Source of the DNA: Minisyncoccota bacterium
GTDB lineage: Bacteria; Patescibacteriota; Minisyncoccia; Phycocordibacterales; UBA918
Length of the DNA stretch: 64,000 nucleotides
Direction of reading: 5' to 3'
NCBI GenBank assembly: GCA_036275695.1
Contig: DASUDI010000021.1
Location: forward strand, 5,311 to 69,310
The position numbers were made by a program, and so were the translations under genes. This document shows positions 40,313-64,000 of the stretch, piece after piece. The first letter of the stretch is position 1. Every line of letters starts with the position of its first letter. Below the pieces are notes generated by a model. The model worked only from the letters and a program-made list of their open reading frames with translations. It was not told the DNA's origin and searched no databases.

Positions 40313-41641
40313 CTATTTAGGTAGTGTGACGACAATCTGAGTTCCAACTCCTTTGATGGACTCTACACCAATTGAACCATTCATTAGATCGATAAGTTGT
40401 TTGGTGATCCACATACCAAGTCCCGTACCCACAATTGCATCCACCTCTGTCCTACGAACTCTGAAAAAAGGTGCAAAGAGGTTCTTTTGATTTTCAGCAC
40501 TAATTCCCATTCCAGTATCCTTAACACGTAATTCAATTGATGGCCCGATATCAGAGACTTCAAGGGTAATAATACCCTTGGGTGTGTATTTAATGGCATT
40601 ACTTACAAGATTTGTAAGTGCTTGATGTAGTCGTTTACCATCAATATTAATCATGACATCACCAAAAAGTCCTTCCTTTTTAAGAGTGATGTTTTTTGCC
40701 TCAGCTTGAAATCTCATAATATCAAGTACAGCAGTAATAATAGGTTGAATATTAGTTCGCGTCGGTTGCATTTCAAGTTTGCCGGATTGTATGCGTGCAA
40801 CATCAAGCAAATCACCCACAAGGATCACCAATTGTTCTGACGAACTCTCGATGCGCTCAGCAAACTTTTTCACCTCATCAGTGGCGTCATCTTTTTGTCG
40901 AATCATACTCGCGTAACCACGCATTGAGGTAAGTGGTGCACGCAGCTCATGAGCTATCATATTAGTAAACATGTCTTTTGCGTCACTTGCTTTTTTTGTT
41001 TCCTTATAGAGATATGAGTAATCAATTAAACGAATGTGTCGCATAATTAGTACGAGGATCACAATGAGCATTGCGATAAGCCAATATACAGCCTCTATAA
41101 TTCTATTTGCAAAAAGGGTATCTATGTGACTGAGTGAGGTTTCCGTAAAAATATAGTACACATCACCCACATCAGTCCGTACGAGTCGATAACTCCTCCA
41201 ATAACGTACTCCATTTTCGGCATACGGTGTGATGATACTTTCATCTGGATGTGTGTTCGTAATTCTATAATTTGTGCTTAAAATATCACTTGTATCAGCA
41301 TCCGCATTGTGTACAATGACTTCAACATCAGGAATTCCTTCCTTTGCAACAATGAATCTTCGAATATCTGGATTTAATTTAGTAAGTGTGTCTATCTCTT
41401 GCTTAATAATTTCAGGATCAAAATTAACTGCCTCAACATATGAAGCGAATACATCATGCATGATGCCAATCCTATCCTTCTCTAAGCGCTCTTGATTTTG
41501 TCTGCCAGCGTCAAGGAATTTTTGTCCAGAAATTATGAATGCAACAGGTATCACAACGATGAGAACCATCGTCATTAACACCTGGGGGTGCTTATGGATA
41601 TACGCGTAACTACTTTTTAACGGGGTGATAAAATGCGACAT
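40313..41641 (-). CDS. two-component sensor histidine kinase (no cognate response regulator adjacent)
   Basis: 442 aa. Two TM helices flank a sensor domain of about 150 aa. HisKA H-box IAHELRAPLTSMRGY. HATPase_c N/G boxes (…LVSNAIKYTPKG…, …DTGMGIS…, …GTGLGMWI…). Confidence 0.8.
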   Translation of the reverse strand: MSHFITPLKSSYAYIHKHPQVLMTMVLIVVIPVAFIISGQKFLDAGRQNQERLEKDRIGIMHDVFASYVEAVNFDPEIIKQEIDTLTKLNPDIRRFIVAKEGIPDVEVIVHNADADTSDILSTNYRITNTHPDESIITPYAENGVRYWRSYRLVRTDVGDVYYIFTETSLSHIDTLFANRIIEAVYWLIAMLIVILVLIMRHIRLIDYSYLYKETKKASDAKDMFTNMIAHELRAPLTSMRGYASMIRQKDDATDEVKKFAERIESSSEQLVILVGDLLDVARIQSGKLEMQPTRTNIQPIITAVLDIMRFQAEAKNITLKKEGLFGDVMINIDGKRLHQALTNLVSNAIKYTPKGIITLEVSDIGPSIELRVKDTGMGISAENQKNLFAPFFRVRRTEVDAIVGTGLGMWITKQLIDLMNGSIGVESIKGVGTQIVVTLPK

Positions 41642-44424
41642 TATAGGGTAACGTTGTCAATTGGCTTGGGGAGTTTACGATTTGTCGCATACATGCCGAG
41701 AAGCATGAGAACAAGCCCCAGTGAAACTATTGAAATCGAAGCAATGAGTAAGAGCATATTTCCGGTGAGGAATGATGGCGTGAGTTCGCTAAACGAATCA
41801 TTTACAAATGGATTTGTCTGCGCAAACGCTTCAGCGGTCTTTACAAAAGGAAATGCAGCGCTTTTTGCAACAATGGCGCCAGTATTATCGGTAATACCAA
41901 CATAGATCTCATGATCACCATCTTCTATTTCTTTATCAAAAATATAACTCCAACTTCCTTCCGCGTCAGTTTTAACTGAAACTACTATTGGTGTGCTATA
42001 AATATAGAGATTGATAAAACTATGCGGTAATGCCTTGCCGGTGATAAGCGCTTTTGGAGTACCTGTCGCTGAATCTGGATGTATTGTAGAAATTGACGCA
42101 ATTGAAAGAACATCATCACGAACAATTCCTGATTCTTTTGCGGACTCATACGCAAGTAATGACTCCTGTTCTGGATTGTTTGGGTCATATCCACGCGCAA
42201 TTTCTGCACCATCAGAAAAACCATCAGTATCTGTATCGGCAACAAATGGATTTGTTTTATATAAATTAATTTCATCAAAATCTAGAATACCATCGTTGTC
42301 AGAATCAATATGTGCTCTGTTGGCGAGTCGGTCTGCGATGATGCGCTCATTGTTTTCTGCCGTGTCAAGTACGTTAAAAGTCAATTGAGATACATATGTA
42401 TTGATGGAGTCAATGAGATTCTTATCTAATAAAATCTCTGATAATTTTGAAATTGTGTCAGATTGAAAGGATTCAATTGTACTTTTAAGAGCGCGGGTCG
42501 CGTCAGTGTCATTTGTTCGTATTGCATGAGCGTATTGTGTCACATACTCATTAAGCTTATTTCTATACTCAAGAATTAGATTTTTGACCTCCGTGCTCGT
42601 ATGTGTACCTTCATCTAAGGAACTATTTAATGATTGGGTAAAATCCTCCACAGACTGTATATATGTGACTTTCTTGTCAGACACTGCAACACTCTCAGCA
42701 CCTTCGGCGTCATCTGCATCGTTCGCGGGTGAAACTGATGGTGTACTCTGAGTTGTTTTTGTAAGTTCCGCATCAACTGCTCGGTATTCTTCTATAAGTT
42801 CCTCTTGTTCAGGTGTGTACTCAATTTCAGAAACATTAAATATGCGTATACCGGTTTTATCAGAAGTATATTCTCCATACTCATTCTTAACACGTGCAAA
42901 TAGTATATATTCACCATTTGGTGAATTATTCGTATTCCACGCATATTTCCACGTTGTATCGCTAATTTTAAATGCAGTACCAATAAATATTTCACGTAAT
43001 GAGTTATTGGGTGTGTGATATAACTCAATTTTGCGCGCGAGAGGCGCGAATAACGAAATTTCTACAAAGTTTGAGAGTGGACTTTGCTTTGAAAGTGACA
43101 CACTAACTTGAGGAGTTTTTCCCTCCGTAGCAATAGTGGTTGTGGAAGAAGCAACCACAGCATCTGTAACATTATCTAAAATCTCATCAACGTTGTCTAC
43201 GGTACGAGTCACCTTGTTGCTCTCAATGATATTGTCTTGGTAATACCCTTTTGCGAAAAAGTAATACGTACCGTCATTTAGTGTTTCTGAATTTAATACA
43301 TATCGCCACTCGTCAATACTTTTCTTAATTGCATTACCTATGAGAAATTGCGTACCACTTAATTTATTAAGTGCGTAAATTGTAACCTTAGATGCATCTG
43401 TACTAGATAATAATTTCATAGACACGTCACCGCGTAGTGGAGATGGTTCATCAATGGTGAGACTAACTCGCGTCGATGTAGAAGTGTCGTTATTAGAATC
43501 TGAATCAGAAGGCGCTTGATCAAGAACACTAGCGAGCTCATTGTGAACTGTATACGTCTCGGAAAAACCTTGGTTATATGAACCAAAACTATTAGAAATA
43601 TTTACAGAAATACGATATTCCCCATTAAGGTAGTAATGTGTGTCCCAACTGATTTGCCATTCTAGATCATTTACTTTATGTGCTGTGCCGAGCGGATGAG
43701 TTGTGCTTGTGTCAATGTGCTTAGCATACACGGTAACATTTGTTGCAGAAGGTACCGTAATAATAATGGGTACGATATCATGAAGTGGCACCTGCCCATC
43801 AATTCTAATATTCGCAGAAGGTGTTTCATCAACATCAGTGAGTTCACCCGAATCTTCAGGTGATGACGTTGCTATCAGACTTGCGGTGTTCCTGTATCCA
43901 CGAGCATAATCCTCAATTTCTGAATTGTTATTGATAAAACCAAAGTGGATTGAGGTTAAAAATGCCCCTATGAGTAGGACCACCATCCCCGCGGTGCGGG
44001 AAAACTGTGAAATAGTAATATTCTGAATAACAGGAAATCGAGTGATTGAGGGGATAGAAACCCTAAATTCAGGTCGCTTCATGAGCACCCCTCCTTTCCG
44101 CGACTGACGCTTCTTTTTTGATAATAAGGTGCTGTTATGAAGTTTAGTCTCAACCACTTTCTTCGTGTTATTTGAAATTTTAACAACATGCCTCTTACCT
44201 TCAAGACGTGCGAGTGTTAATTTTTTAGGTAACTCGTTTTGATTAATCTTTGAACGTGAAGTGTGCGTGGGAGTGCGTCTCATTGTTTTTTTGAGACTTT
44301 GTGTCGGTATGACTTTGGAAGTTCGTTTAACTTCTTCACGCGACTTAATGCCGATACGCTTACGTGTCACATGCTTAGCGCTCGCGCTCGAACGAGGGAC
44401 TGCTTTGGGTGCAGGTTTTACCAT
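41641..44424 (-). CDS. hypothetical large cell-surface protein with internal repeats and Asp-rich Ca-binding-like motifs
   Basis: 927 aa. Lys/Arg-rich N-terminal ~115 aa, then a TM/signal anchor (AGMVVLLIGAFLTSIHFGF). Three similar modules (…NGEYRISVNISN…, …DGTYYFFAKGYY…, …NGEYILFARVKN…). DSDNDGILDFDE…DTDTDGFSDGAE (thrombospondin-type-3-like). C-terminal TM anchor plus a basic tail. Confidence 0.55.
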   Translation of the reverse strand: MVKPAPKAVPRSSASAKHVTRKRIGIKSREEVKRTSKVIPTQSLKKTMRRTPTHTSRSKINQNELPKKLTLARLEGKRHVVKISNNTKKVVETKLHNSTLLSKKKRQSRKGGVLMKRPEFRVSIPSITRFPVIQNITISQFSRTAGMVVLLIGAFLTSIHFGFINNNSEIEDYARGYRNTASLIATSSPEDSGELTDVDETPSANIRIDGQVPLHDIVPIIITVPSATNVTVYAKHIDTSTTHPLGTAHKVNDLEWQISWDTHYYLNGEYRISVNISNSFGSYNQGFSETYTVHNELASVLDQAPSDSDSNNDTSTSTRVSLTIDEPSPLRGDVSMKLLSSTDASKVTIYALNKLSGTQFLIGNAIKKSIDEWRYVLNSETLNDGTYYFFAKGYYQDNIIESNKVTRTVDNVDEILDNVTDAVVASSTTTIATEGKTPQVSVSLSKQSPLSNFVEISLFAPLARKIELYHTPNNSLREIFIGTAFKISDTTWKYAWNTNNSPNGEYILFARVKNEYGEYTSDKTGIRIFNVSEIEYTPEQEELIEEYRAVDAELTKTTQSTPSVSPANDADDAEGAESVAVSDKKVTYIQSVEDFTQSLNSSLDEGTHTSTEVKNLILEYRNKLNEYVTQYAHAIRTNDTDATRALKSTIESFQSDTISKLSEILLDKNLIDSINTYVSQLTFNVLDTAENNERIIADRLANRAHIDSDNDGILDFDEINLYKTNPFVADTDTDGFSDGAEIARGYDPNNPEQESLLAYESAKESGIVRDDVLSIASISTIHPDSATGTPKALITGKALPHSFINLYIYSTPIVVSVKTDAEGSWSYIFDKEIEDGDHEIYVGITDNTGAIVAKSAAFPFVKTAEAFAQTNPFVNDSFSELTPSFLTGNMLLLIASISIVSLGLVLMLLGMYATNRKLPKPIDNVTL

Positions 44425-52748: not shown

Positions 52749-54086
52749 CTACTGAGCACTATTTACGCCTTCAACATACTCCATCCCTTCATCAACGGTG
52801 ATTTGATAGCGGTTATGTTCTTCAGTTGCTTTTGCAATATACATAACGGTGATAATAAAAATTATAATGATGATAAGTAGGGATATGAAAAACTTTTTGT
52901 ACACGCGTACAAAACCTATGATTGTCTCCATAACATCCATTGTCTCGCGAGTCGCGTGCATACGCGCGCGCAAATCAAGTACACCATATCGCAGCGGCGC
53001 GGTGATGTGCGTTTGTGGTACGGAGCGGGTATTGGGTTGTCCTCTCTCCCATAACATACTTCGTGGTGTGGTGTGTAAGTGAACATGACCCTCCTTTGGA
53101 TCTACACCAGCGAGTATGAGCATTCTACGTACATACGCACGCACCATCCACACAAGACTCGAAATAATAAGTGTCAAAATAGACACAACAATAAGCGTCG
53201 CTTTCAGCGGGATAACCCAAAAATATACTGTTGCGGATTCACTCTTTACACCATCAGTCCCGTAGCCAAGGGTAACAATTGCCTTATAGCGACCAATATC
53301 GCTAAGGTTAAAGTCACTACTCCATGTATAATGATATTCACGTATACTTTTCGGCAGTACGTTTCCAAATTGGGTCTGATAATTAACGGGGATCACTCCT
53401 CGTTCGGTACCCCACATATTAGTGATACGTATTTCACCTCGCGGGAGAAGGTGCACGTTGCCTTTATTCTCAAATCGTAGTGAAAATTCTGCCTGTGGTT
53501 TTTCAAGTATGGAATCAGATAGTCGAAATTCACGAATGGAACCTTGCTCGATTACGTCACCTTCGACCCTCAAAAAAAATAATGAGGTGACTGCTTGTGA
53601 TGTCCTGACGAGAGGACCATTTGCAATATTATTTGGTGGTTCGGTACTTATGAGTACTGCTGCATAATGTCCTCCCGGTGACGCATTCTTTGGAATGTCC
53701 ACAATGAACGATATCTCCTGAGTCTGTTCTGGCTGTATCTGGTGTGGCCCAGGGGGAATCTCAACCCACTCCGCAAGTGTTGCGCCATCGGTATCTGGCG
53801 AATCGATAATTTGTGCCTCATCTTTTTTGACGGAAAAAAATTCACCTTGCCCATTTTCGCCCGTTGGTGAAAAATTTACCACTTCTGCATATACCGTCAT
53901 GGGGAATGGGTTGCCGTTTACAACTTTAATAGTACTTTGCCACACATCTCCGGGAAGCGCGGTTATTTGAAAAAGTGGTGGGGTGACACTCAAAATTTGC
54001 GAAGATTGAGCGTTTACCGAAGATGAGCACATGAGCAGAAAAAAAGTGCCAATGATCTGTGTGAATCTAAAAAGTACATTTCTCAT
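52749..54086 (-). CDS. hypothetical cell-surface protein (signal peptide, beta-rich ectodomain, C-terminal TM anchor; DUF916/DUF3324-like organisation)
   Basis: 445 aa. Signal MRNVLFRFTQIIGTFFLLMCSSSVNA. Then …LSVTPPLFQITALPGDVWQSTIKVVNG… C-terminal TM (LKATLIVVSILTLIISSLVWMV) plus a tail. It is a paralogue of the next gene. Confidence 0.5.
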   Translation of the reverse strand: MRNVLFRFTQIIGTFFLLMCSSSVNAQSSQILSVTPPLFQITALPGDVWQSTIKVVNGNPFPMTVYAEVVNFSPTGENGQGEFFSVKKDEAQIIDSPDTDGATLAEWVEIPPGPHQIQPEQTQEISFIVDIPKNASPGGHYAAVLISTEPPNNIANGPLVRTSQAVTSLFFLRVEGDVIEQGSIREFRLSDSILEKPQAEFSLRFENKGNVHLLPRGEIRITNMWGTERGVIPVNYQTQFGNVLPKSIREYHYTWSSDFNLSDIGRYKAIVTLGYGTDGVKSESATVYFWVIPLKATLIVVSILTLIISSLVWMVRAYVRRMLILAGVDPKEGHVHLHTTPRSMLWERGQPNTRSVPQTHITAPLRYGVLDLRARMHATRETMDVMETIIGFVRVYKKFFISLLIIIIIFIITVMYIAKATEEHNRYQITVDEGMEYVEGVNSAQ

Positions 54087-55087
54087 AAGTTGTTACGTGT
54101 TAGATCAATATCATGATGACGTGGGTCGCGTTTCCCTTCACGCACATGAACCATAAGGCGCTCTGAGTCATCCATATCAGTATCATCGAAATAACGTTTA
54201 TGAACATACCACGCGCCAAAAATTACCACAGTAATTAAGCCTGAGAGTAGTATGAGTAAATACTTTATCGGAAAGGCGTAAAAGAAACTTGTGTCTTGGA
54301 CCGTCGCTCGCTGTGTTGAACCGTATTCAACTGATAAAAAAGCCTTGTATTTACCGAAAAGACCGTCACGCGATATCTTGGTTTCGAATACATGCTCACC
54401 ATTGGGAGGAACCTCTACGCGATCCTCATTGACGCGGGCAACCCCCACTTCCTTGCCCTTGCTATCATAAATAATGATTTCTCCTTCAGGAACAAGACTC
54501 TCACTGCTCGGATTGTTAAAGGTGTAGCGGGCTACATTATTAGAATCATTGGTAATGAAGCGATTTACAACAAACCCCGAAAGTTTGAGAAATTCAGTAT
54601 TCTTCTCCTCAATGGTGACATTAATGATCGTTCCTGGTGCCTGACCCTGTGCCACAAGTCGCTCTGCCTCGTCGCGATTATCACCATGACCAAATCCAAT
54701 AAATGCATGATATGTACCTGGTGACGGGGTTGGGTGCACACGGAGTGTAATGGGGATTTTTATTTCATCACCCGGTCGCACGAGGATGCCAAGTCTGCTA
54801 ACTTCAATCCACGACGCAAGTGAGGTGGTACGGTCACTCTCAACTGGTGGCAGGAATTCTTCAATTGTCCCACCATCCTGAATCGAAATGTTGTTGACGG
54901 AGGGATAAAGAGTGGCTGGTTGAGCTCCCGTATTTTTAATAGTAATTTCCTTTTGAATAATATCCCTTCCCTCTGCATCTATATCCATTACCAGTGGCGA
55001 TACCGAAAAGGTGGGCGCCGCGTATGCGACGACAGGTGTCGTGTATAGCGAGAGTGTTATTAAACTTATGATGTAAAAATATCTCAT
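54083..55087 (-). CDS. hypothetical cell-surface protein, paralogue of 52749..54086
   Basis: The start is taken at MRYFYIISLITLSLYTTPVVAYA (signal peptide). Then …FSVSPLVMDIDAEGRDIIQKEITIKNTG… C-terminal TM (IKYLLILLSGLITVVIFGAWYV). Its start abuts the stop of the giant gene. Confidence 0.5.
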   Translation of the reverse strand: MRYFYIISLITLSLYTTPVVAYAAPTFSVSPLVMDIDAEGRDIIQKEITIKNTGAQPATLYPSVNNISIQDGGTIEEFLPPVESDRTTSLASWIEVSRLGILVRPGDEIKIPITLRVHPTPSPGTYHAFIGFGHGDNRDEAERLVAQGQAPGTIINVTIEEKNTEFLKLSGFVVNRFITNDSNNVARYTFNNPSSESLVPEGEIIIYDSKGKEVGVARVNEDRVEVPPNGEHVFETKISRDGLFGKYKAFLSVEYGSTQRATVQDTSFFYAFPIKYLLILLSGLITVVIFGAWYVHKRYFDDTDMDDSERLMVHVREGKRDPRHHDIDLTRNNL

Positions 55088-55088
55088 A

Positions 55089-58000
55089 CTAAAAAACGGG
55101 TACTGAAATGTATCGCATGTGTGCTTCGTATGTTCCCGCATCCTGCATTTGACGTACGAGTAATCTAAATACAACATCAATAAACTCGCCCACCACCGGC
55201 TGTGAACTATACCCCACCTCATCAAGTGTTGTTGTGCTCATACGTGCCCATGTATCGACTGCTGAAAACCGAGTTGAGCCACCATACAGTGTATCATCTG
55301 CAGAGTGGTAACCAAAACAACTGCGAGCACTCGCGTTACACCCTGAAGCCCATGAGGTCGGGGTACCGTTGGTACCTATGACCTGATCGATTTTTTCACC
55401 AAATGATGTGAGCATATCCCCTGAAAGAGTCGTGAAGAGTCGATATCCTGAAGTTCCATTTGTGTCAATGGTGAAACGATGTGCACCTTCAACAAACGTA
55501 TCAACAGGGACTGAACCAAATGGAATTGTGGACGGTGTTGTTGCGATATCAGTAGTGATTCCTTCAATGGTCTGTCCAGAGGATATCCCTGTCATAGTAA
55601 AGACCAGACTTGCGCCCTTGGTCAGAAGACTTGGGTACGTTTCTCCCTGCGCGAGTGGCACGACGCTATTATTAGTCGCGTCATATGCCCTAAAATAATA
55701 CACTCGATTGACGCGTGCGCCACTACTCCTCAATGTAAACGCAAACTCAGTTGCAGCATTTATTTGATGATCAAAGGTGCTTGTAGTGGTGCCACTTTCA
55801 TTATGTGTACCGCATCCGACACCAACTTGTGACACACACGCGCCCACATCAGAAAGTAATTTTGTTTGTATAGACACGTCATCTGCTCCACCCCCGTTCT
55901 CATAGCACCAGTAGGAAAGATTGGTGCATGTACCCATTTCAGATACAAAGGTCGATGTTGCAAATGTAGGTGATTCTGAAAACTGCAGACGAAATCGAAC
56001 ATTAGTCCCCACGGCACCGTTGGATTCTTGGAGCGTAAGACGCAATTGAATAGGATTATTTACATCAATGTCAATGGGAGCCACTGTTTCATTCGCAAGT
56101 GGAGTTGTGGGTGTTTCATTTTCCGCATCATCATACCATCTCCAATTTTTTGATTCTGCACCATATCCCACCGTGCGAATTGTGGGGTAATTATTATACG
56201 CAGTCAGTAGTGTTCCATTTGCTTCAGTCATCCTAAAACAGTATGACGTCCTATCAGCGGCACCATTATTTTGAATTGCCCAGTCATACTCAATATCCTG
56301 ATTGGCATTTGTTTTATATGGTGCGAGCGCGGTATTGTTTTGCTCTTCAAAGGTTCCCGCGACGTCTGAAACAGACAAAAGTAAATCACCACCCGTAGGC
56401 GGGTCTCCTGAAAGTACCGCCCCATCAGTAATCGGAGTTGAGGTACCTCTCCATAATGCGGTAGTACTCCCAATCGCACCCAGATTTTTCCACTCAGTTG
56501 TTTGAATAGCACTACACGTGGTGATTCGTGGTGCGTATTGAAGCTTAAATGCGTCGGTATTCGCAATAAGTGCCGCGGCACTTATTGCGAGTGACATGCG
56601 TAGTCGCAGTGTTCCACCATTAAGTATCGGGGTGTCGAACCCTGTCATCTCCGTATTTTCTCCAAGGTCAGTAGCACCCACTGGCCATGGATCCGTAGGT
56701 TTTAAAGCGTTGTTATTGACATAGAGTCTGTAGTAATTTTGAGATATCTTTCTACGTGCGGTTGGCCACTCAACAACCTCTGTTCTGTAATTTCTTGTGT
56801 CACCCGTATTACTCATCCATATTTCATACTGTGTCGTAGAGATAAGACGAGTCGCAATCATTGGTTCAGGCCACGATGTTCCCGTCCCCGAACTTCTGTT
56901 ATTCATAAAAATTGAAGCGATACCCACGTCATCAAGTGTTTTACCGATATTTATATTTGAAGTAAAGGGAGCCGTACCACCTGACTGCGTGCCATTTGAG
57001 CGGGTGACCACCATCGTGGTGCCCACCGTCTGAAGATTCTCAATAATCCACGCCACTGATACGTGCCCTGTTGGTGTTGTTGCCGCGCCATCTAAAAGAA
57101 ACGACACCTGTCCAACACTTGAAAGCCACACCTCGTGTCCAAAGTTTGCATGCGAATCAAGCCCTGATCCAACACGCTTTTGTGTATGCACAAAAGCTCG
57201 CGTAAGACTTCCGATTGCGGTAATTGATTCAGTTTCAGTACTTCCCGCAGATGAGTAGGTGTGTTCAGCGCGCTGAACTACCCAGTTAGAGCCGGTAAAT
57301 TCTACTACCGCGTAACTTACATACACCGCATCACTCCCCGCTTCACCGCGCGTAAATGTTGCCGTGTCAGCACCCGCGTCCCATGACGCGGTGGAAAGTA
57401 CGGTATTGTAGTCCGCTCGGCCTGAGTCAGGATTGTATTGACCAGTGACGAACACTGCCACATCAGTATCATCAGTGATACCCGCGACAGTATTTGACGT
57501 AAGCGTCGTACCTGTCGTGGTGTACGCGCGCGCTTGCTGCTGTCGCACAATGAATTCATTCTCTCCCCCGGCAGTTCCTTTGTACTCTACAATTTCCCAC
57601 GCAACTCTTGTATCACCCGAAGGAGTACCATTTCTTTGAAAAGTGATACTATTAGTGATATTTGAGGGATTGGTGATATACACCGTAACATCGTTAGCGT
57701 TCTGGTTTCCAGTCGCACCAGAATCTCCTGCGCCCGTACTATGCGTATTGGTAATGCGAATAAATGCCGAGGTCGAGGCACTCGGTGCTACATAGTCAGT
57801 CCCTGCGTTAATGGTAAGTGAGCCACCAGTAATTGTCGAAACACCTCGCTGCACTCGGAAGTCAGTGGGTAATTTAATGGTCACCTCGGGATAGACCGAG
57901 TATGCGGGGAGTGCCGTTCCTGCGTTTGTAAGACGAAAACAATAGGTGGCACCTTCCACTGATGACGCGGTTGCGTTGAGTGAGTACTCGAATTCAACGA

Positions 58001-60560
58001 ATTGAGTTTCTGAGAGAGTAATAGAACCCGTCTGAGATGTTGTTTCTCGCTGTCCTCCATTTGAGGTCACGAAGCTGGCATTTTCGTCATTCATACCTCC
58101 ACTTGATACGGTAATATTTGTGGTGTTATTGCCTTCAACAAGTTGTGACGCGGACATGTCCCACGCACCACCTCCAGTACTCACGTCACTCCACCCTGTT
58201 GCAGCACTACATGTTGAGATTTTTTGCGCAAATTCAAGGCGGTATTGGATACCTTGCGTAGTGGTGCCACCTTCATTTGATACTTGCACACGAAGTCGCT
58301 GTATATCAAGTTGTGCTACTTTGGTAAGTGGCGTATCAGCAGTACCACCCGTAGCCGAAGTCGCGCCAGACTCTGTTCCATCGTTGTTGCGCCAATGATA
58401 GTGTGTTTGCGTAGGTATACTTTTATATAGTCGCGTTACTCCTGGTACAGCAACATTTGTATTAGGTGCCACGTTGGCACCACTTGCATTAATGTGCGTA
58501 TTAGGATTAGTGATTTGTAAATCAAGTGATTGATTATTTGTAGAACTGGCGGTTATATCAAGCATTGTATATATACACGCACTCTGTGTCGAAGAAACGC
58601 TGATTGAGCCGACGAATGTAGATGTTCCTGTGGTCGAAAATCCATCAGTGTCAGTTGTACCATACTGAGATTCAGTCCCTATGTACGACTCACTCGCGCA
58701 ATTATATGGTGCAGAAGTATCATACTCATAGTACAGTTTGATATTATCGAGTCCATATACCACATCAACCGTTCCACTCGCGGTAATGGTTATACCGGAA
58801 ATGGTGTGTGGGCCAGCCGTCTGCGCCTCAATATTAAAACTACCTCCAAGGTATACATTTGAAGTGGTTATATCGATACTTGTGCGCTGTGTTCCAGCAC
58901 TGGTAACCAAGACATCCGCGGTAACAGTTGCTTCTGGGTACACCGAGTAGGTAATCTCTGATGCTGAACCAGCATCAGTAAGCCTAAAACAATAAGTCCC
59001 TCCATCGGTTGCGTTGGTAGTTGGTGAGATTGAATATTCTAATTCCGCAAACTGACTTGATGTAAGCGTGAGTCCACCCACCTGTGATGAAGTGTCCTTC
59101 ACTCCTCCATTAGGAGTGAGAAATGTTGTGTTCTCATTCGTTACTCCTCCCGTTGAAACTACTATATCGGTGGTGTCACTTCCATCGGTAATATTACTTG
59201 AATTAAACATATCCCAATCACCTCCACCCGCACCAACATCAGTCCAGCCGGACGCCGCGGAACACGTAGACACCTTTGATGCGTATTCAATGCGATATTG
59301 TTTTGAGGTCGACGTTTTATTTCCTTCGTTTGATATTTCAAAACGAAGACGTTTTCCCACGAGTTTGCCAATCGCAGAGAGGTGCGTGCTCTCAGTGCCT
59401 CCTGTTGCTGAAGTAGCTCCCGATTCACTTCCGTTATCATTACGCCAATGAAAACGCATTTGTCGCAAATCAACTTTTTGCACCGTACCTGCACCAGAAA
59501 TTGAAAGCGCTGTTGTGGGATCTATGACTGGTGAGCTTGCGGCCACAACATCAATAGACGGATTGGTCATCTGAATATCGATAGTATCACCCGCACCTGC
59601 ACTTGATTGAACATCAGCAACAACATATACGCATAACGCTTTTGTGGTGTTGATATTTATACCTGATGCGGTAAAAACGGATGAGCCGTCAGCACCACTG
59701 AATCCATCCGCATCGGTGGACCCATACTGAGACTCAGTACCCGCATAACTTTCACTTGCGCAGTTATACGGCGATGAGGTATCGTTTTCGTAGAATAATT
59801 TAATATTTTTAAGGTTTGAGGACGCGTCAATAGTACCGTGTTCATATACAGTGATTGAAGTCACATCACGGTTACTCACGGATGAGTTTTCAGTTATTGC
59901 AAAACTCCCACCAAGATGCGCGTTATTCGTTCCCGCATCAATATTTTGCATCGTGCCCTGCGTTGATACAGTGATATTAATTACTGGCGTATAGGTAACA
60001 TACGCGTAGAGTGCGTAGTTGATACAGTTGGTGGCACCTCCCGCACCGGGCTTAGTACAGGTGGTACGAACACGCAACCCGTCAAGATCAGATTGCGTGA
60101 GCGTGAGCCCCGTGAAGTTGACACTTGACCACGTGCTTACGGTACTAATAGTGACATTCTGTGTCGTGCCAATCTGGGTAGTTTCTGCGGCATTCCAAAG
60201 TGAAACCTGGAACTGCATATTTGAACCACCTTCTTTGTGATACAAAAATACGGTCACCGCGGACGCAGTCTGAACATTTGAAATCGTACCCATTTGGTAC
60301 GAATCGAGCTGATTGCGCGTGAATGTAAGATAATCACCTGTTGTACTGGGTGCTGTTGTTGAACTCACACCATCATTAACACAATCATAATTATTCGCAG
60401 TAGCACACGTTGTTCGCGCCCCCTGAGAGGTGTTTCCTGCACCATCAGGGTTTATTTGTTGCCCCAATGCCTCAGTAATAAGTGTATATATAAAAAAACC
60501 ACACAGCACAAATAGAGCAGTTATACCTGCAACGGTGACCATTTCCATGCTCTTACGCAT
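55089..60560 (-). CDS. giant (about 1820-aa) repeat-containing extracellular protein
   Basis: A single uninterrupted ORF. N-terminal signal anchor (MVTVAGITALFVLCGFFIYTLI). Ser/Thr/Gly/Asn-rich. It contains a ~355-aa tandem duplication. A …WR…YCFR[LM]T[DN]AG-type subdomain is repeated at least 4 times. Confidence 0.6.
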   Translation of the reverse strand: MRKSMEMVTVAGITALFVLCGFFIYTLITEALGQQINPDGAGNTSQGARTTCATANNYDCVNDGVSSTTAPSTTGDYLTFTRNQLDSYQMGTISNVQTASAVTVFLYHKEGGSNMQFQVSLWNAAETTQIGTTQNVTISTVSTWSSVNFTGLTLTQSDLDGLRVRTTCTKPGAGGATNCINYALYAYVTYTPVINITVSTQGTMQNIDAGTNNAHLGGSFAITENSSVSNRDVTSITVYEHGTIDASSNLKNIKLFYENDTSSPYNCASESYAGTESQYGSTDADGFSGADGSSVFTASGININTTKALCVYVVADVQSSAGAGDTIDIQMTNPSIDVVAASSPVIDPTTALSISGAGTVQKVDLRQMRFHWRNDNGSESGATSATGGTESTHLSAIGKLVGKRLRFEISNEGNKTSTSKQYRIEYASKVSTCSAASGWTDVGAGGGDWDMFNSSNITDGSDTTDIVVSTGGVTNENTTFLTPNGGVKDTSSQVGGLTLTSSQFAELEYSISPTTNATDGGTYCFRLTDAGSASEITYSVYPEATVTADVLVTSAGTQRTSIDITTSNVYLGGSFNIEAQTAGPHTISGITITASGTVDVVYGLDNIKLYYEYDTSAPYNCASESYIGTESQYGTTDTDGFSTTGTSTFVGSISVSSTQSACIYTMLDITASSTNNQSLDLQITNPNTHINASGANVAPNTNVAVPGVTRLYKSIPTQTHYHWRNNDGTESGATSATGGTADTPLTKVAQLDIQRLRVQVSNEGGTTTQGIQYRLEFAQKISTCSAATGWSDVSTGGGAWDMSASQLVEGNNTTNITVSSGGMNDENASFVTSNGGQRETTSQTGSITLSETQFVEFEYSLNATASSVEGATYCFRLTNAGTALPAYSVYPEVTIKLPTDFRVQRGVSTITGGSLTINAGTDYVAPSASTSAFIRITNTHSTGAGDSGATGNQNANDVTVYITNPSNITNSITFQRNGTPSGDTRVAWEIVEYKGTAGGENEFIVRQQQARAYTTTGTTLTSNTVAGITDDTDVAVFVTGQYNPDSGRADYNTVLSTASWDAGADTATFTRGEAGSDAVYVSYAVVEFTGSNWVVQRAEHTYSSAGSTETESITAIGSLTRAFVHTQKRVGSGLDSHANFGHEVWLSSVGQVSFLLDGAATTPTGHVSVAWIIENLQTVGTTMVVTRSNGTQSGGTAPFTSNINIGKTLDDVGIASIFMNNRSSGTGTSWPEPMIATRLISTTQYEIWMSNTGDTRNYRTEVVEWPTARRKISQNYYRLYVNNNALKPTDPWPVGATDLGENTEMTGFDTPILNGGTLRLRMSLAISAAALIANTDAFKLQYAPRITTCSAIQTTEWKNLGAIGSTTALWRGTSTPITDGAVLSGDPPTGGDLLLSVSDVAGTFEEQNNTALAPYKTNANQDIEYDWAIQNNGAADRTSYCFRMTEANGTLLTAYNNYPTIRTVGYGAESKNWRWYDDAENETPTTPLANETVAPIDIDVNNPIQLRLTLQESNGAVGTNVRFRLQFSESPTFATSTFVSEMGTCTNLSYWCYENGGGADDVSIQTKLLSDVGACVSQVGVGCGTHNESGTTTSTFDHQINAATEFAFTLRSSGARVNRVYYFRAYDATNNSVVPLAQGETYPSLLTKGASLVFTMTGISSGQTIEGITTDIATTPSTIPFGSVPVDTFVEGAHRFTIDTNGTSGYRLFTTLSGDMLTSFGEKIDQVIGTNGTPTSWASGCNASARSCFGYHSADDTLYGGSTRFSAVDTWARMSTTTLDEVGYSSQPVVGEFIDVVFRLLVRQMQDAGTYEAHMRYISVPVF
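57878..59993. repeat. intragenic tandem duplication, two copies of about 1.06 kb, inside the giant surface-protein gene
   Basis: The protein blocks …NNAHLGGSFAITENSS…YCFRLTDAGSASEITYSVYPEATV and …SNVYLGGSFNIEAQTA…YCFRLTNAGTALPAYSVYPEVTI are collinear, about 355 aa apart. Two similar antisense ORFs end about 1.05 kb apart (58398 and 59451). Confidence 0.7.
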
Positions 60561-60622
60561 ACATAAATACCTCCGAATATATCGGATACCTCTATTATGA
60601 AGCAAAACACCAGAAATGCGAC

Positions 60623-62344
60623 CTACTGTTGTGGGTTTGAAGTTGTTGCAGCATCATCTAGCGGTTCAATGTACGGTGTAATGATCAGATCATACGGAGT
60701 ACTTTCATCATGGATAGGTAACGTTGAGGATGACTGGGTAGACATACTAATATCATAGGAAGTATTTTGATACTGACCAACAGTTGTTGTCGCACCCAGA
60801 AGTAGAGATGTGTCATCATCAGTAATGGGAACATACGGAGTAACGACAATATCAGATTCAGATATATCAATATTGCTATCATTTGTTGAATCATCAGGTG
60901 AACCGTCACCCTCTACTGTGGATTGCTTCTCCTTTAATTGTGGCGTCTGAGAGACGAGCGCGCGCTTTTGACCAGTTTGCTCAGGATCAGGGATTTCATC
61001 AGGAAGAGAGACAGGTTTTGCGCCAAGCTCTATATTTTCACCACTACCGAGATCGTAACCACGAATTAACACATCGCCCGACTCTGATTTTGAGTCATAT
61101 ACAAGTACGAAACGGGGATTTTCAATGGTGCCACCGTCATTACCCTCGATTGTCTCAGTGTGCTTTGTGCGAATATCATACACTTTCATTACCCACACAT
61201 CATGCTCGAATGACTGCCACACAACATGGGTACCATTAATTTGTGGGGAAATATCGTGCACTACATTGTCAGTAAGCATATATGGCTCGTCTGTGCCATG
61301 CATCATAAATATCTCCCAATCATTACCTATCCACCCCTGCCAAACAGTTATTTCACCAAAACGTGAGGGGTGCATATTATTATATCTATCGAACGTAATT
61401 TGTTGTTCGTCTGTGTGCTCAATGTCATAAATCATAATTTGGTATCGGCCATCTATAAGTCTATGCCATGTAATAGTATTAGTTGATTCATCAAAATATG
61501 GCGCATCATCATCAAATGTGTTTCGGGTAATCTGTGTAATATCTCCGCCCTTCTCAATGAAGATTTCGAGATCACCATCCTCATCAGGAGCAGAATAAAC
61601 TCTATCCGTATACACAATCTCAGATTCCTCTTTTTGTTTTACACAATAATACGTGCCATCATCCATGGTTGCGCACTCTGATTGAGCAAAAGACAATCTA
61701 TTCTCGTCGTTTGTTACTGTATTAATAAGTGGTTGCGCCGGCTCAGTATATGCAGCAGCATCGGAGACATCAGTGTCACTGTGTACCTCATGTAATGGAG
61801 TCGAGCCCCCCTCGTCAACCACGCTTGAAACTTCTGGAAAAACACTGTCTTCATTTGCTACGAGCGGAGGCGCGTCTCCACTACCATTATTAAAGGATAA
61901 GATATCTTCATTCTCAGAGCTTTGATCTTCACGCGAGTTATCAGAAACACCATGCTCAGGTGATTGATCAAAATTCTCATCTACCTCAATGAGACCAGCG
62001 TGGTTATTGTCTACATTATTATCCGCCTCAGTCATAATTACAGGGACACTATTCTCTGGTTCTAACTGTGAAGTTGTAGTGTCCACATCTACACTCGGCA
62101 CAACTGGTGGTACTGGCGAAGCGTCAAATGTACTTTCCATTTGCTCACCAACATTTGCTTCATGTACGGTTTCCGTATCCGTTGGCGAGGACAGTGTTTC
62201 TAACGCAACTTCATCCGCAAAAACAGGCGCAAGGGGAAGTGCCACAAGAAGTGACATAACAACAAAAGCACACAGTACCCACGCGTAGTAAGTTATGTAA
62301 TGACGTTTACGTATTTGAGTAATGTTATATGTGCTCCACATCAT
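60623..62344 (-). CDS. hypothetical acidic secreted protein with propeller-like W-containing repeats
   Basis: Likely start MMWSTYN… with a signal anchor (YYAWVLCAFVVMSLLVALPLAPVFA). Long D/E/S-rich linker. Repeated …ITWHRLIDGRYQIMIYD… / …ITVWQGWIGNDWEIFMMH… / …VVWQSFEHDVWVMKVYD… units. Confidence 0.5.
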   Translation of the reverse strand: MMWSTYNITQIRKRHYITYYAWVLCAFVVMSLLVALPLAPVFADEVALETLSSPTDTETVHEANVGEQMESTFDASPVPPVVPSVDVDTTTSQLEPENSVPVIMTEADNNVDNNHAGLIEVDENFDQSPEHGVSDNSREDQSSENEDILSFNNGSGDAPPLVANEDSVFPEVSSVVDEGGSTPLHEVHSDTDVSDAAAYTEPAQPLINTVTNDENRLSFAQSECATMDDGTYYCVKQKEESEIVYTDRVYSAPDEDGDLEIFIEKGGDITQITRNTFDDDAPYFDESTNTITWHRLIDGRYQIMIYDIEHTDEQQITFDRYNNMHPSRFGEITVWQGWIGNDWEIFMMHGTDEPYMLTDNVVHDISPQINGTHVVWQSFEHDVWVMKVYDIRTKHTETIEGNDGGTIENPRFVLVYDSKSESGDVLIRGYDLGSGENIELGAKPVSLPDEIPDPEQTGQKRALVSQTPQLKEKQSTVEGDGSPDDSTNDSNIDISESDIVVTPYVPITDDDTSLLLGATTTVGQYQNTSYDISMSTQSSSTLPIHDESTPYDLIITPYIEPLDDAATTSNPQQ

Positions 62345-62437
62345 AGCAAAACATGCGCGCATATTTAACCCAATGCACCCATATTCATCTATAATAGCAA
62401 CTATTTGCAATGATGAGTGACAGTGTTATCAACAGTG

Positions 62438-63181
62438 CTAATGATAAAATGACTCTGCGAGAAGTATTGAAAAATCAATAAATGTCATCCTTCCATCGTT
62501 ATTGAAATCAAAAGTAAATTTGCGCGAAATCCACGCAGCCATAAACTTCGACACATCATCCATATCCACATCATTATCGTTGTCTACATCAGTAACTACG
62601 TTGATTTGTGCCTCCGCGGTAAGCACACCATCTGAACCCGTTATGGCGAGTGAGACAATGCCCACGCCATCATTAGTCGCATTGACTGAGGTGCCATTTC
62701 CATCACCCGCAATGAGTTTGGTACTTTGCAGTATAATGCGTGCATCACCAGATTTGACCGCGTGAGCACGAATTCGCGCGACCTGGTGATTGCCTACAAA
62801 ACCCTTTCTGAAGGTACCGCCCTGCATATAAATTTTTCCATTTTCAGCGTATGGATTTTTATTCCATAAGGATATGACAGAAGTGCCCACATCTATACTA
62901 TCAATAACAAGAAATTCCTCTGGATACGTAAGTATAATATCGACTGCGTTAATGGGGACGTGTGCGGAAATGGTGACGTCTACATAAAATTGCTGATCCT
63001 GAGTCACCTTGTCGTCTGAAACTTGTAAGGAAATATATGAAGAGTTTTGAGTAGTTACTGCCGCGAGACCCGCGAAGATGGTGGTCAAAAATACAAATGA
63101 AAACGCGTATCGAACCGTGGTGTGGTGCTTTGCTTGATAATTGGGATAAAATAATTTAATGAAAAAACGTAACATACACAA
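62438..63181 (-). CDS. cohesin-domain plus C-terminal dockerin-like module protein
   Basis: Cohesin-like beta-sandwich segment (…FYVDVTISAHVPINAVDIILTYPEEFLVIDSIDVG…). Two dockerin-type Ca-binding repeats at the C-terminus (DVDNDNDVDMDDVSKFMAAW and DFNNDGRMTFIDFSILL). Confidence 0.55.
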   Translation of the reverse strand: MCMLRFFIKLFYPNYQAKHHTTVRYAFSFVFLTTIFAGLAAVTTQNSSYISLQVSDDKVTQDQQFYVDVTISAHVPINAVDIILTYPEEFLVIDSIDVGTSVISLWNKNPYAENGKIYMQGGTFRKGFVGNHQVARIRAHAVKSGDARIILQSTKLIAGDGNGTSVNATNDGVGIVSLAITGSDGVLTAEAQINVVTDVDNDNDVDMDDVSKFMAAWISRKFTFDFNNDGRMTFIDFSILLAESFYH

Positions 63182-63841
63182 TTACGGTACCAGCGTAGAC
63201 CTCAACGCGTCAATTTGGTGATTACTTACATCAAGTGACTCACTCACATTCTTTGCGTACGCAACGAGTGAAGCAACTTCTGAACTTTGAGCTGACGCAC
63301 CAGAAATAAGATGGGTGATGATGTCTTGTTGTATATCTGCAAGTTCTACAAGGAGACTGCTCCGCCCTTGTTCAAGGGTAACTAAGTTGGAAAATGCTTC
63401 GCTCACCGCATGATACTCCCCTACGTCTTTGAGTAGCGAGAGAATTGTAATATTTTCTTTAAGACGATCCACCGACTGTTCCAATCGTGTCACCATAAGT
63501 GCCTTTCGCTCACCATAAAAATTACCACAACTTTCAAACAAGCTTTGCATAGTGACCAATTCAGGTTTAGTAAGTGATGCGAGTCGTATAAGATATGACT
63601 CATACTCCTCTCGTCTCCCACAGTCTGCGATAATCTGCTCAGTTACTTCGTCTGCGCCATTTCTATCAGTAATTTCGGCGAGTGCTACCACATCAGCTAC
63701 GTTTTGAGAAATACTGTTTTCCAGGTATGTGACCACATGTTTTTTTTGATACGCACTAAAACCCGCACCGATACAAAGTGCGAGCGCACATATTCCTAAT
63801 GCGCGGGCGACTTTCAGATGTTGCAATAGTGATGCTTTCAT
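63182..63841 (-). CDS. hypothetical membrane-anchored helical protein
   Basis: 219 aa with an N-terminal TM (ALGICALALCIGAGFSAY). The rest is alpha-helical and low-complexity. Confidence 0.45.
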   Translation of the reverse strand: MKASLLQHLKVARALGICALALCIGAGFSAYQKKHVVTYLENSISQNVADVVALAEITDRNGADEVTEQIIADCGRREEYESYLIRLASLTKPELVTMQSLFESCGNFYGERKALMVTRLEQSVDRLKENITILSLLKDVGEYHAVSEAFSNLVTLEQGRSSLLVELADIQQDIITHLISGASAQSSEVASLVAYAKNVSESLDVSNHQIDALRSTLVP

Positions 63842-63850
63842 AAATATATT

Positions 63851-64000
63851 TTACGTGACGATATGTTCAACATCATCAATTTCTTTTGCGATATGTTCTT
63901 GCGCCCTAGTAATATCAGCACGGATTTCGTCTATGAGCGCGGATTCAGACTTAGTCAATTTACCTTTTCGTGAAATTGTGAGCGCCTCTACATTTTTATC
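63851..64000 (-). CDS. C-terminal fragment of an unidentified coiled-coil protein, running off the window
   Basis: The reverse complement gives an open frame …DKNVEALTISRKGKLTKSESALIDEIRADITRAQEHIAKEIDDVEHIVT* with the stop at 63851..63853. It is absent from the ORF track because it is incomplete. Confidence 0.3.
   Translation of the reverse strand, partial: DKNVEALTISRKGKLTKSESALIDEIRADITRAQEHIAKEIDDVEHIVT

Follow-up and report, generated by a model that had tools for sequence, protein, structure and literature searches.

We analysed 64,000 nucleotides of a Minisyncoccota genome (contig DASUDI010000021.1, positions 5,311–69,310; hereafter, the window) and found that its open reading frame (ORF) g09 encodes a small protein in which a cohesin-fold module is followed by a two-repeat dockerin. 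This confirms a preliminary description of the DNA, which had read both modules in one 247-aa protein; the motifs that it quoted are present, TISAHVPINAVDIILTYPEEFLVID at residues 70–94 and DFNNDGRMTFIDFSILL at residues 225–241. Two points were missing from that description, namely the location of the gene on the minus strand and the transmembrane (TM) anchor of its product. The predicted anchor, which is N-terminal, makes the protein a putative membrane-tethered scaffold, not a free one. The gene is the ninth of a conserved block of 12 genes (g02–g13), three others of which lie just past position 64000 and encode proteins with cohesin or dockerin modules. We think it probable that the g09 protein serves as a membrane-anchored adaptor (mini-scaffoldin) in a non-enzymatic surface hetero-complex.

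The g09 gene and its two modules

The minus-strand frame of g09 (Table 1) runs uninterrupted through 247 codons, and no open plus-strand frame exists over the same interval, where stops occur throughout. NCBI records the product as a 245-aa hypothetical protein of a Candidatus Paceibacterota metagenome-assembled genome (MAG), starting at an ATG that lies two codons 3′ of the TTG and is the alignment start for most homologues. Its locus tag is VFV22_02090, and the longest contig recorded for the protein has 77.6 kb. A word-indexed search returned at least 239 homologues, nearly all of 244–247 aa, and 967 clusters (50% identity), most of 220–270 aa and matched end to end, emerged from an exhaustive profile search at E≤1e-10. 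A chance ORF or annotation artefact would fit the unusual TTG start and the sub-threshold Pfam scores of the sequence taken alone; however, full-length homologues of 36–69% identity in conserved synteny number in the hundreds, the domain model is confident and an ATG is available. The conservation data already refute this reading. The TAA stop codon of g08 is followed directly by the candidate start codons of g09, TTG and ATG (63179–63184, minus strand), with neither a spacer nor an obvious ribosome-binding site, which suggests that the two genes are translationally coupled.

The layout of the protein was derived from an alignment of 51 sequences, an AlphaFold model (mean predicted local distance difference test score, pLDDT, 72.7), and hydropathy and charge counts. 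AlphaFold places the hydrophobic helix at residues 24–46, and its flanks are basic on the N side and acidic on the C side. By the positive-inside rule applied to the N-terminal tail, the topology is predicted to be N-in, C-out (type II), with both modules facing outward. The juxtamembrane motif TVRYAF is conserved in the family and F27 and A40 of the helix are invariant among the homologues, suggesting that the helix is a retained signal anchor; a signal cleaved after AGLA is conceivable as the alternative.

At the family level, sequence comparison clearly identifies the C-terminus as a dockerin. The preliminary description had placed two canonical calcium-binding repeats there, and both were recovered as 12-residue loops whose key positions are kept in 51 homologues: D1, D12 and a hydrophobic residue at position 8 are invariant in both, D/N3 is universal, and D5 and G6 occur in 49–51 of the 51. 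The g09 protein itself diverges from its family by an N instead of G6 in loop 1. Structure prediction had been proposed as a check, and the AlphaFold model contains an all-beta module at residues 46–172 and a helix after each calcium loop. The arrangement is the tandem duplication of type I dockerins, in which a segment of ~22 residues consists of a 12-residue calcium loop and then a helix.

Pfam sets gathering scores of 22.9 bits for Dockerin_1 (PF00404) and 24.1 bits for Cohesin (PF00963), and its EF-hand cut-offs are 25. Of the 51 homologues, 49 matched Dockerin_1 at E≤0.1 and 26 still did so at E≤1e-4, the best value being 1.9e-7. When 69 dockerin modules of the cluster were combined into a profile and compared with the PDB, the profile aligned with both repeats of 2y3n_B, a solved dockerin, from position 2 to 53 of 55 (E 5e-7); the dockerins 1daq_A, 2mte_A, 4fl4_A and 6kg9_A were also matched, again in single stretches that cover both repeats. 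With the full-length family profile, only weak EF-hand, dockerin and cohesin matches were obtained in the PDB. The dockerin of the g09 family and that of g04, described below, matched each other in hhalign with an E value of 2.1e-6.

These comparisons bear on a reading without any cohesin–dockerin pairing, in which a generic Ig-like adhesion or glycan-binding domain is joined to an EF-hand-type calcium stabiliser or sensor and the protein is a simple calcium-dependent adhesin. Asp at loop position 12 is the signature of dockerins, whereas canonical EF-hands have Glu there. The canonical EF-hand, a helix-loop-helix with a bidentate Glu at position 12, was not found in the g09 family, as Asp is invariant in both loops. 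In the AlphaFold model, residues 173–196 are unstructured and no entering helix precedes loop 1, which in that model is the F-hand arrangement of dockerins. Calmodulin-type proteins matched the dockerin profile via one loop only, as EF-hand proteins mostly do, in contrast to the solved dockerins. The EF-hand models (PF00036/PF13405) reached 16.3 and 12.2 bits on the g09 protein and were thus sub-threshold. On these grounds, and on those given below for the cohesin module and its paralogues, we regard an adhesin of this kind as improbable.

The two dockerin repeats of g09 are dissimilar, with about 7/22 consensus positions identical, whereas the repeats of the g04 dockerin are near-duplicates, and the DFSILL helix of g09 repeat 2 recurs in both of the latter. 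Since the g09 repeats differ and the DFSILL helix matches both g04 helices, the sequences hint at a single binding mode via helix 3, and competition for the same socket would be possible.

The assignment of the middle domain as a cohesin is supported by three independent lines of evidence, including sequence profile and transitive homology. Residues 46–172 are modelled with pLDDT 80–94 as an all-beta domain of the cohesin type, a flattened beta-sandwich of ~9 strands, and in comparison with other structures cohesins outranked every other fold, which also argues against a generic Ig-like domain. Hallmarks of the module family are NAVD, G-x-S-V-I-x-LW-x-x-x-P, GG-x-x-x-GF-x-G and DG-x-GT. A profile of 119 cohesin-type modules from the cluster retrieved nine PDB sequences at E≤1, all nine of them cohesins (best 5m2o_A, E 0.0013); sequence identity of the g09 module to solved cohesins is 13–19%. 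With Pfam Cohesin, 11/51 homologues matched at E≤0.1; the best value was 1.6e-4, and none reached E≤1e-4.

Transitive homology runs through g07, which passes the Pfam cut-off for Cohesin (31.6 bits). The middle domain of g09 is 33% identical to the g07 cohesin over 94 residues (BLASTP, E 3.6e-7), and in hhalign the g09 family aligned with g07 over 110 columns (E 5.7e-8, probability 94.7%) and the middle domain with g06 at E 1e-4. BLASTP reached E 4e-14 within the set of cohesin modules of g07, g06 and g09, and g06 and g07 are 35% identical. The three share the motifs N-A-x-D, S-x-x-x-L-W-x-x-x-P, GG-x-x-x-G-[YF]-x-G and D-G-x-G-T.

Putative partner genes and the conserved envelope cluster

Homologues on long contigs have a recurring pair of upstream genes, encoding a protein of ~580 aa with a Cohesin match and one of ~370 aa with Dockerin_1 matches. 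Another assembly from this species (L004) supplied the 10 kb upstream of position 64000; it encodes a protein identical to that of g09 and is 99.4% identical to the window in DNA over 1,966 shared bases. It carries three putative partner genes two to five genes upstream of g09. The g04 product (L004:3892–5034; 380 aa) is secreted, with a signal peptide, a Cys-rich DUF4215 repeat, Ig-like domains and a dockerin that passes the Dockerin_1 cut-off (31.7 > 22.9 bits). The g07 product (573 aa) has a signal peptide, the cohesin (31.6 > 24.1 bits), a Big_13 domain, a C-terminal TM helix and a cytoplasmic tail. The g06 product (341 aa) has a signal peptide, a cohesin-like module (E 0.012, sub-threshold in Pfam) and a C-terminal TM helix. 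Together with g09, this amounts to two dockerins and three cohesin-type modules, one of the latter exceeding the Pfam cut-off; an extracytoplasmic location is predicted for all of them. Each of the three cohesin proteins has a membrane anchor, and g04 encodes the only dockerin protein that lacks one. That paralogous modules passing the Cohesin and Dockerin cut-offs occur in the same conserved cluster is a further argument against an adhesin without pairing.

The partners that decide the interpretation thus lay just outside the analysed window, and the view of the g09 protein as stand-alone does not hold, as g04, g06 and g07 belong to the same operon-like cluster. The preliminary description had also stated that no partner occurs here unless other proteins carry cryptic modules. 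For the window itself this stands: searches of all six-frame ORFs of the 64 kb with family and cluster-wide hidden Markov models (HMMs) found no cohesin or dockerin other than those of g09. It does not stand past the window's edge. A cryptic module in the giant protein of g11 was not detectable with the cluster's own profiles.

Mean pairwise distance among 23 genomes was 0.18 for the g04 dockerin, compared with 0.41 for the g09 dockerin and 0.35–0.51 for the three cohesins. This conservation of the g04 dockerin may reflect its service to several sockets.

Synteny was examined in 43 loci, five from look-ups of the exact protein (L004 and L005 carry an identical one) and 38 from species-representative genomes, with ORFs assigned to their best reference. 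Most are labelled Kaiserbacteria, Paceibacteria, Parcubacteria or Patescibacteria. Genes g02–g13 are co-linear on one strand in essentially all loci that are long enough; g09 is accompanied by g07 in 42 of the 43, by g06 in 41, by g10 in 40, by g08 in 39 and by g11 in 37, and a gene for an FtsX/MacB-type permease often lies 5′ of the block. A signal peptide or TM anchor is present in every product of g02–g13, and Pfam revealed neither a glycoside hydrolase nor any other catalytic domain in the block, about 74 kb of genome having been examined. The organism is, as the preliminary description had assumed, reduced and apparently non-cellulolytic, and belongs to Paceibacterota; the suggested role in surface architecture fits this enzyme-free envelope context.

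Some of the other products are related to each other. Over its C-terminal ~180 residues, g05 is similar to the C-terminus of g11 (33% identity, E 3e-18), and by fold, compared with the PDB only, this common domain is TasA-like or pilin-like. The products of g12 and g13 are paralogous (25% identity, E 2e-16); g03 (L004:2966–3886) has the same layout, and homology to g12/g13 was not detected for it. The cluster is reminiscent of the loci for Csc/WxL surface complexes in Firmicutes, a likeness not supported by Pfam, in which no WxL, DUF916 or DUF3324 match was found. Coordinates of the features in the window are listed in Table 1.

Table 1. Features of g09 and of its neighbours in the window
Feature	Position	Strand	Remarks
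g07, 3′ end	63851..64000	minus	Last 49 codons and stop; final feature of the window, cohesin module beyond its edge
g08	63182..63841	minus	219 aa; N-terminal TM helix, helical ectodomain; immediately upstream of g09; 39/43 loci
g09	62438..63181	minus	247 aa from TTG 63181; 245 aa from ATG 63175 (NCBI); stop 62438–62440
g09 N-terminal tail, residues 1–22	63116..63181	minus	Short, basic (3 K/R, 2 H, no D/E); predicted cytoplasmic (positive-inside rule)
g09 hydrophobic helix, residues 23–44	63050..63115	minus	Single; read as signal anchor; Kyte-Doolittle 19-residue window 1.84
g09 cohesin-fold beta-sandwich module, residues 46–172	62666..63046	minus	
g09 linker, residues 173–196	62594..62665	minus	pLDDT <50, low-confidence/disordered; moderately conserved, G185 nearly invariant
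g09 dockerin module, residues 197–247	62441..62593	minus	Two loop-helix (F-hand) repeats
g09 calcium-binding loop 1, residues 198–209	62555..62590	minus	DVDNDNDVDMDD; then helix VSKFMAAWIS (model helix 207–219)
g09 calcium-binding loop 2, residues 225–236	62474..62509	minus	DFNNDGRMTFID; then helix FSILLAESFY (model helix 234–246)
g10	60623..62410	minus	595 aa; N-terminal TM helix, acidic linker, TolB-like beta-propeller; downstream neighbour, 40/43 loci
g11	55089..60605	minus	1838-aa giant surface protein, no Pfam domain
g12	54083–55225	minus	Signal peptide, beta-sandwich domains, C-terminal TM anchor
g13	52749–54086	minus	Signal peptide, beta-sandwich domains, C-terminal TM anchor; end of block

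Individual loci showed deviations. At L003:6430–7095, a gene for an IS200-type Y1 transposase (PF01797) lies between g05 and g06, and no separate g08 ORF was detected at this locus. The only rearranged locus, L036 (Kaiserbacteria SKGH01000075.1), has the order g06 g07 g09 and then g02 g03 g04, with no g08; this may be a rearrangement or an artefact of assembly or circular permutation. An 87-kb contig (L028, JBLIMJ010000001.1) carries g02–g09 and is titled 'Acidimicrobiales bacterium'; no g10–g13 were detected downstream of its g09, though the locus runs 10 kb beyond it. It is probably a mis-binned Patescibacteria contig. Many third-party annotation (TPA) MAGs that bear the family are labelled 'uncultured Candidatus Saccharibacteria', possibly as a default label and not as their true taxonomy. 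The family profile also matched a 2148-aa protein (P0155) through 15 separate dockerin-like stretches (E 2.9e-51). This giant of repeated calcium-loop units recalls the dockerin-type giant proteins of bioRxiv 10.1101/2023.11.21.568195.

Elsewhere in the window, a 927-aa envelope protein (41641–44424, minus strand) contains repeated Ig-like modules and Big_13 in addition to its basic N-terminus, a TM helix and a second, C-terminal TM helix; the gene that follows encodes a histidine kinase. Its pair of DxDxDG motifs was considered as a dockerin and rejected, as it is a bacterial TSP3 calcium-binding repeat (PF18884, E 2.5e-8). Nearly all long ORFs of positions 1–64000 are on the minus strand; those on the plus strand do not exceed 178 aa, and most of them overlap with longer ORFs of the minus strand. 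Over the window, the cumulative GC skew declines steadily from about +0.25 to −0.57. This indicates that genes are very strongly biased to one strand for at least 64 kb and is consistent with a single replichore.

A proposed adaptor and its alternatives

From the modules, their predicted topology and the synteny, we infer how the proteins might bind, with which partners and to what end. The g09 protein would display one cohesin outside the cell, followed by a flexible linker of ~25 residues and the calcium-binding dockerin. Its cohesin socket would capture a dockerin, either from a second g09 molecule or from g04, whose product is the one dockerin protein in the cluster without a tether, while its own dockerin would plug into the cohesin of g07, g06 or another g09 copy. 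Calcium-dependent cohesin–dockerin contacts would then wire the surface proteins of the cluster into a defined envelope complex, which plausibly serves surface architecture or host attachment.

Several findings weigh against the adaptor. The hmmscan check with PF00963 and PF00404 that the preliminary description had proposed technically fails on the g09 protein alone: Dockerin_1 reached 14.6 bits (E 0.038), below its cut-off, and Cohesin gave no match at E≤1. In the same single-sequence searches of Pfam and NCBIfam, dockerin_GC was sub-threshold at 14 bits, and phmmer of the sequence against the PDB gave no match. On the C-terminus, the EF-hand models and Dockerin_1 scored about equally, and the dockerin part of the model is moderately confident (pLDDT about 70–75). 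A mirror-tree comparison of the two dockerin with the three cohesin sets over 23 loci singled out no pair; the only raised partial correlation, 0.33 between dockerin and cohesin of g09, is confounded, as these modules share one polypeptide. Furthermore, the g09 protein is itself membrane-anchored, so an adaptor is not strictly required to tether cargo, and with about 74 kb of genome seen, further partners may exist elsewhere.

The preliminary description had suggested that such a protein can self-assemble; in g09, the dockerin of one molecule would then bind the cohesin of the next and form membrane-tethered chains or a two-dimensional lattice. Both modules are in one chain with a flexible linker between them, 0.33 is the highest of the cohesin–dockerin partial correlations, and auto-recognition has a precedent in Amy4 of the Ruminococcus bromii amylosome, which bears a cohesin as well as a dockerin and whose cohesin binds its own dockerin and those of other proteins, leading to multimerisation (PMC4611034). 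Amy4, however, is a secreted 1356-aa amylase of glycoside hydrolase family 13 (GH13) from a Firmicute, whereas the g09 product is a non-catalytic 245-aa membrane protein from Patescibacteria. The location of both modules in one gene confounds the correlation, strict co-occurrence with three other cohesin/dockerin proteins in 41–42 of 43 loci favours hetero-partners, and a TM anchor on each monomer would limit the geometry of a chain. We therefore regard self-polymerisation as unlikely.

The linker also allows an intramolecular clasp, in which the dockerin folds onto the cohesin of the same molecule and yields a closed or auto-inhibited form, perhaps opened by a competitor or a change in calcium. 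With ~25 residues and pLDDT <50 the linker is long and flexible enough for back-folding, and it is moderately conserved, but the overall predicted template modelling score (pTM) of the model is only 0.52. Such a clasp seems to us rather improbable.

Beyond the preferred adaptor role of g09, the whole block g02–g13 could be an undescribed, lineage-wide envelope machine of Kaiserbacteria/Paceibacteria. The g09 protein would be its central double-ended adaptor among three membrane-anchored cohesins and two dockerins, and the machine would assemble and hold a surface fibre or giant adhesin, with g05 and g11 as candidates, by which these ultra-small, host-dependent bacteria attach to their hosts. 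We put this forward as a speculative extension that is more doubtful than the adaptor itself. If it is true, wiring of the cellulosome type has been repurposed for an 'adhesosome' and not for enzymes.

Relation to known cohesin–dockerin systems

A close likeness in layout is ScaC, the adaptor scaffoldin of Ruminococcus flavefaciens, which is likewise small and non-catalytic, with one cohesin and one C-terminal dockerin. Its cohesin (5lxv) is among both the sequence-profile and the fold matches of the g09 protein. ScaC, a secreted protein, links enzymes with ScaA within a cellulosome that degrades plant fibre. In contrast, the g09 protein has its own N-terminal TM anchor, and neither the cluster nor the window contains a dockerin-bearing enzyme. 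Cellulosomes and amylosomes are characterised by dockerin-bearing carbohydrate-active enzymes, none of which was found in g02–g13 within the ~74 kb.

Proteins with such modules outside cellulosomes include those of Archaeoglobus fulgidus (cohesin 2xdh) and Clostridium perfringens (2vo8, 2jh2), which belong to other phyla and contexts than g09. In C. perfringens, unlike in g09, the modules form appendages of large glycoside hydrolases and toxins. To our knowledge, no conserved multi-gene envelope cluster has been described around the cohesin–dockerin proteins of either organism.

Non-cellulosomal cohesins and dockerins occur across all three domains of life, including A. fulgidus and anaerobic methanotrophic (ANME) archaea, and in the latter such proteins have been proposed to attach functional proteins to the outer cell layer and to mediate cell–cell interaction (PMC9012536). 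As non-cellulolytic, partner-dependent organisms with a proposed surface-attachment role of these modules, ANME resemble the g09 system. Their proteins differ from it in being archaeal and variable in architecture (up to five cohesins), often fused to surface-layer (S-layer) or substrate-binding domains, and in having no fixed co-linear cluster. Within Patescibacteria, SEML1_0315 of Saccharibacteria is a dockerin-domain envelope protein that was essential in transposon sequencing (Tn-seq) and for which a role in host adhesion has been speculated (PMC10633639). By its description it is likewise a cell-envelope dockerin protein of this group; it comes from a different class, and no cohesin partner has been reported for it. 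We found no description of the g09 family or its cluster in the literature on cohesins and dockerins in Patescibacteria, which also go by the name Candidate Phyla Radiation (CPR), our coverage of which was incomplete; the Saccharibacteria dockerin protein was the only report.

Non-cellulosomal cohesin–dockerin systems are defined by an organism or locus without cellulolytic enzymes (Peer et al. 2009, cited in PMC9012536), as was found here. The g09 protein belongs to these already known systems. Particular to it are the N-terminal TM anchor, in place of a surface-layer homology (SLH) domain or sortase attachment, the lack of enzyme cargo and the fixed 12-gene cluster.

The conserved cluster is a more interesting object than the g09 protein itself. 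A large part of bacterial diversity belongs to the Patescibacteria, which are mostly uncultured and live in attachment to host cells; little is known of how they construct their surface and keep hold of a host. The g09 family and its cluster, which further includes a giant surface protein and several anchored Ig-like proteins, offer a concrete, testable wiring diagram of a CPR envelope complex with three sockets and two plugs, all of them small and expressible. Cohesin–dockerin biology, best known from cellulosomes, would thereby come to include a symbiont with a reduced genome, in which its role would be structural or adhesive.

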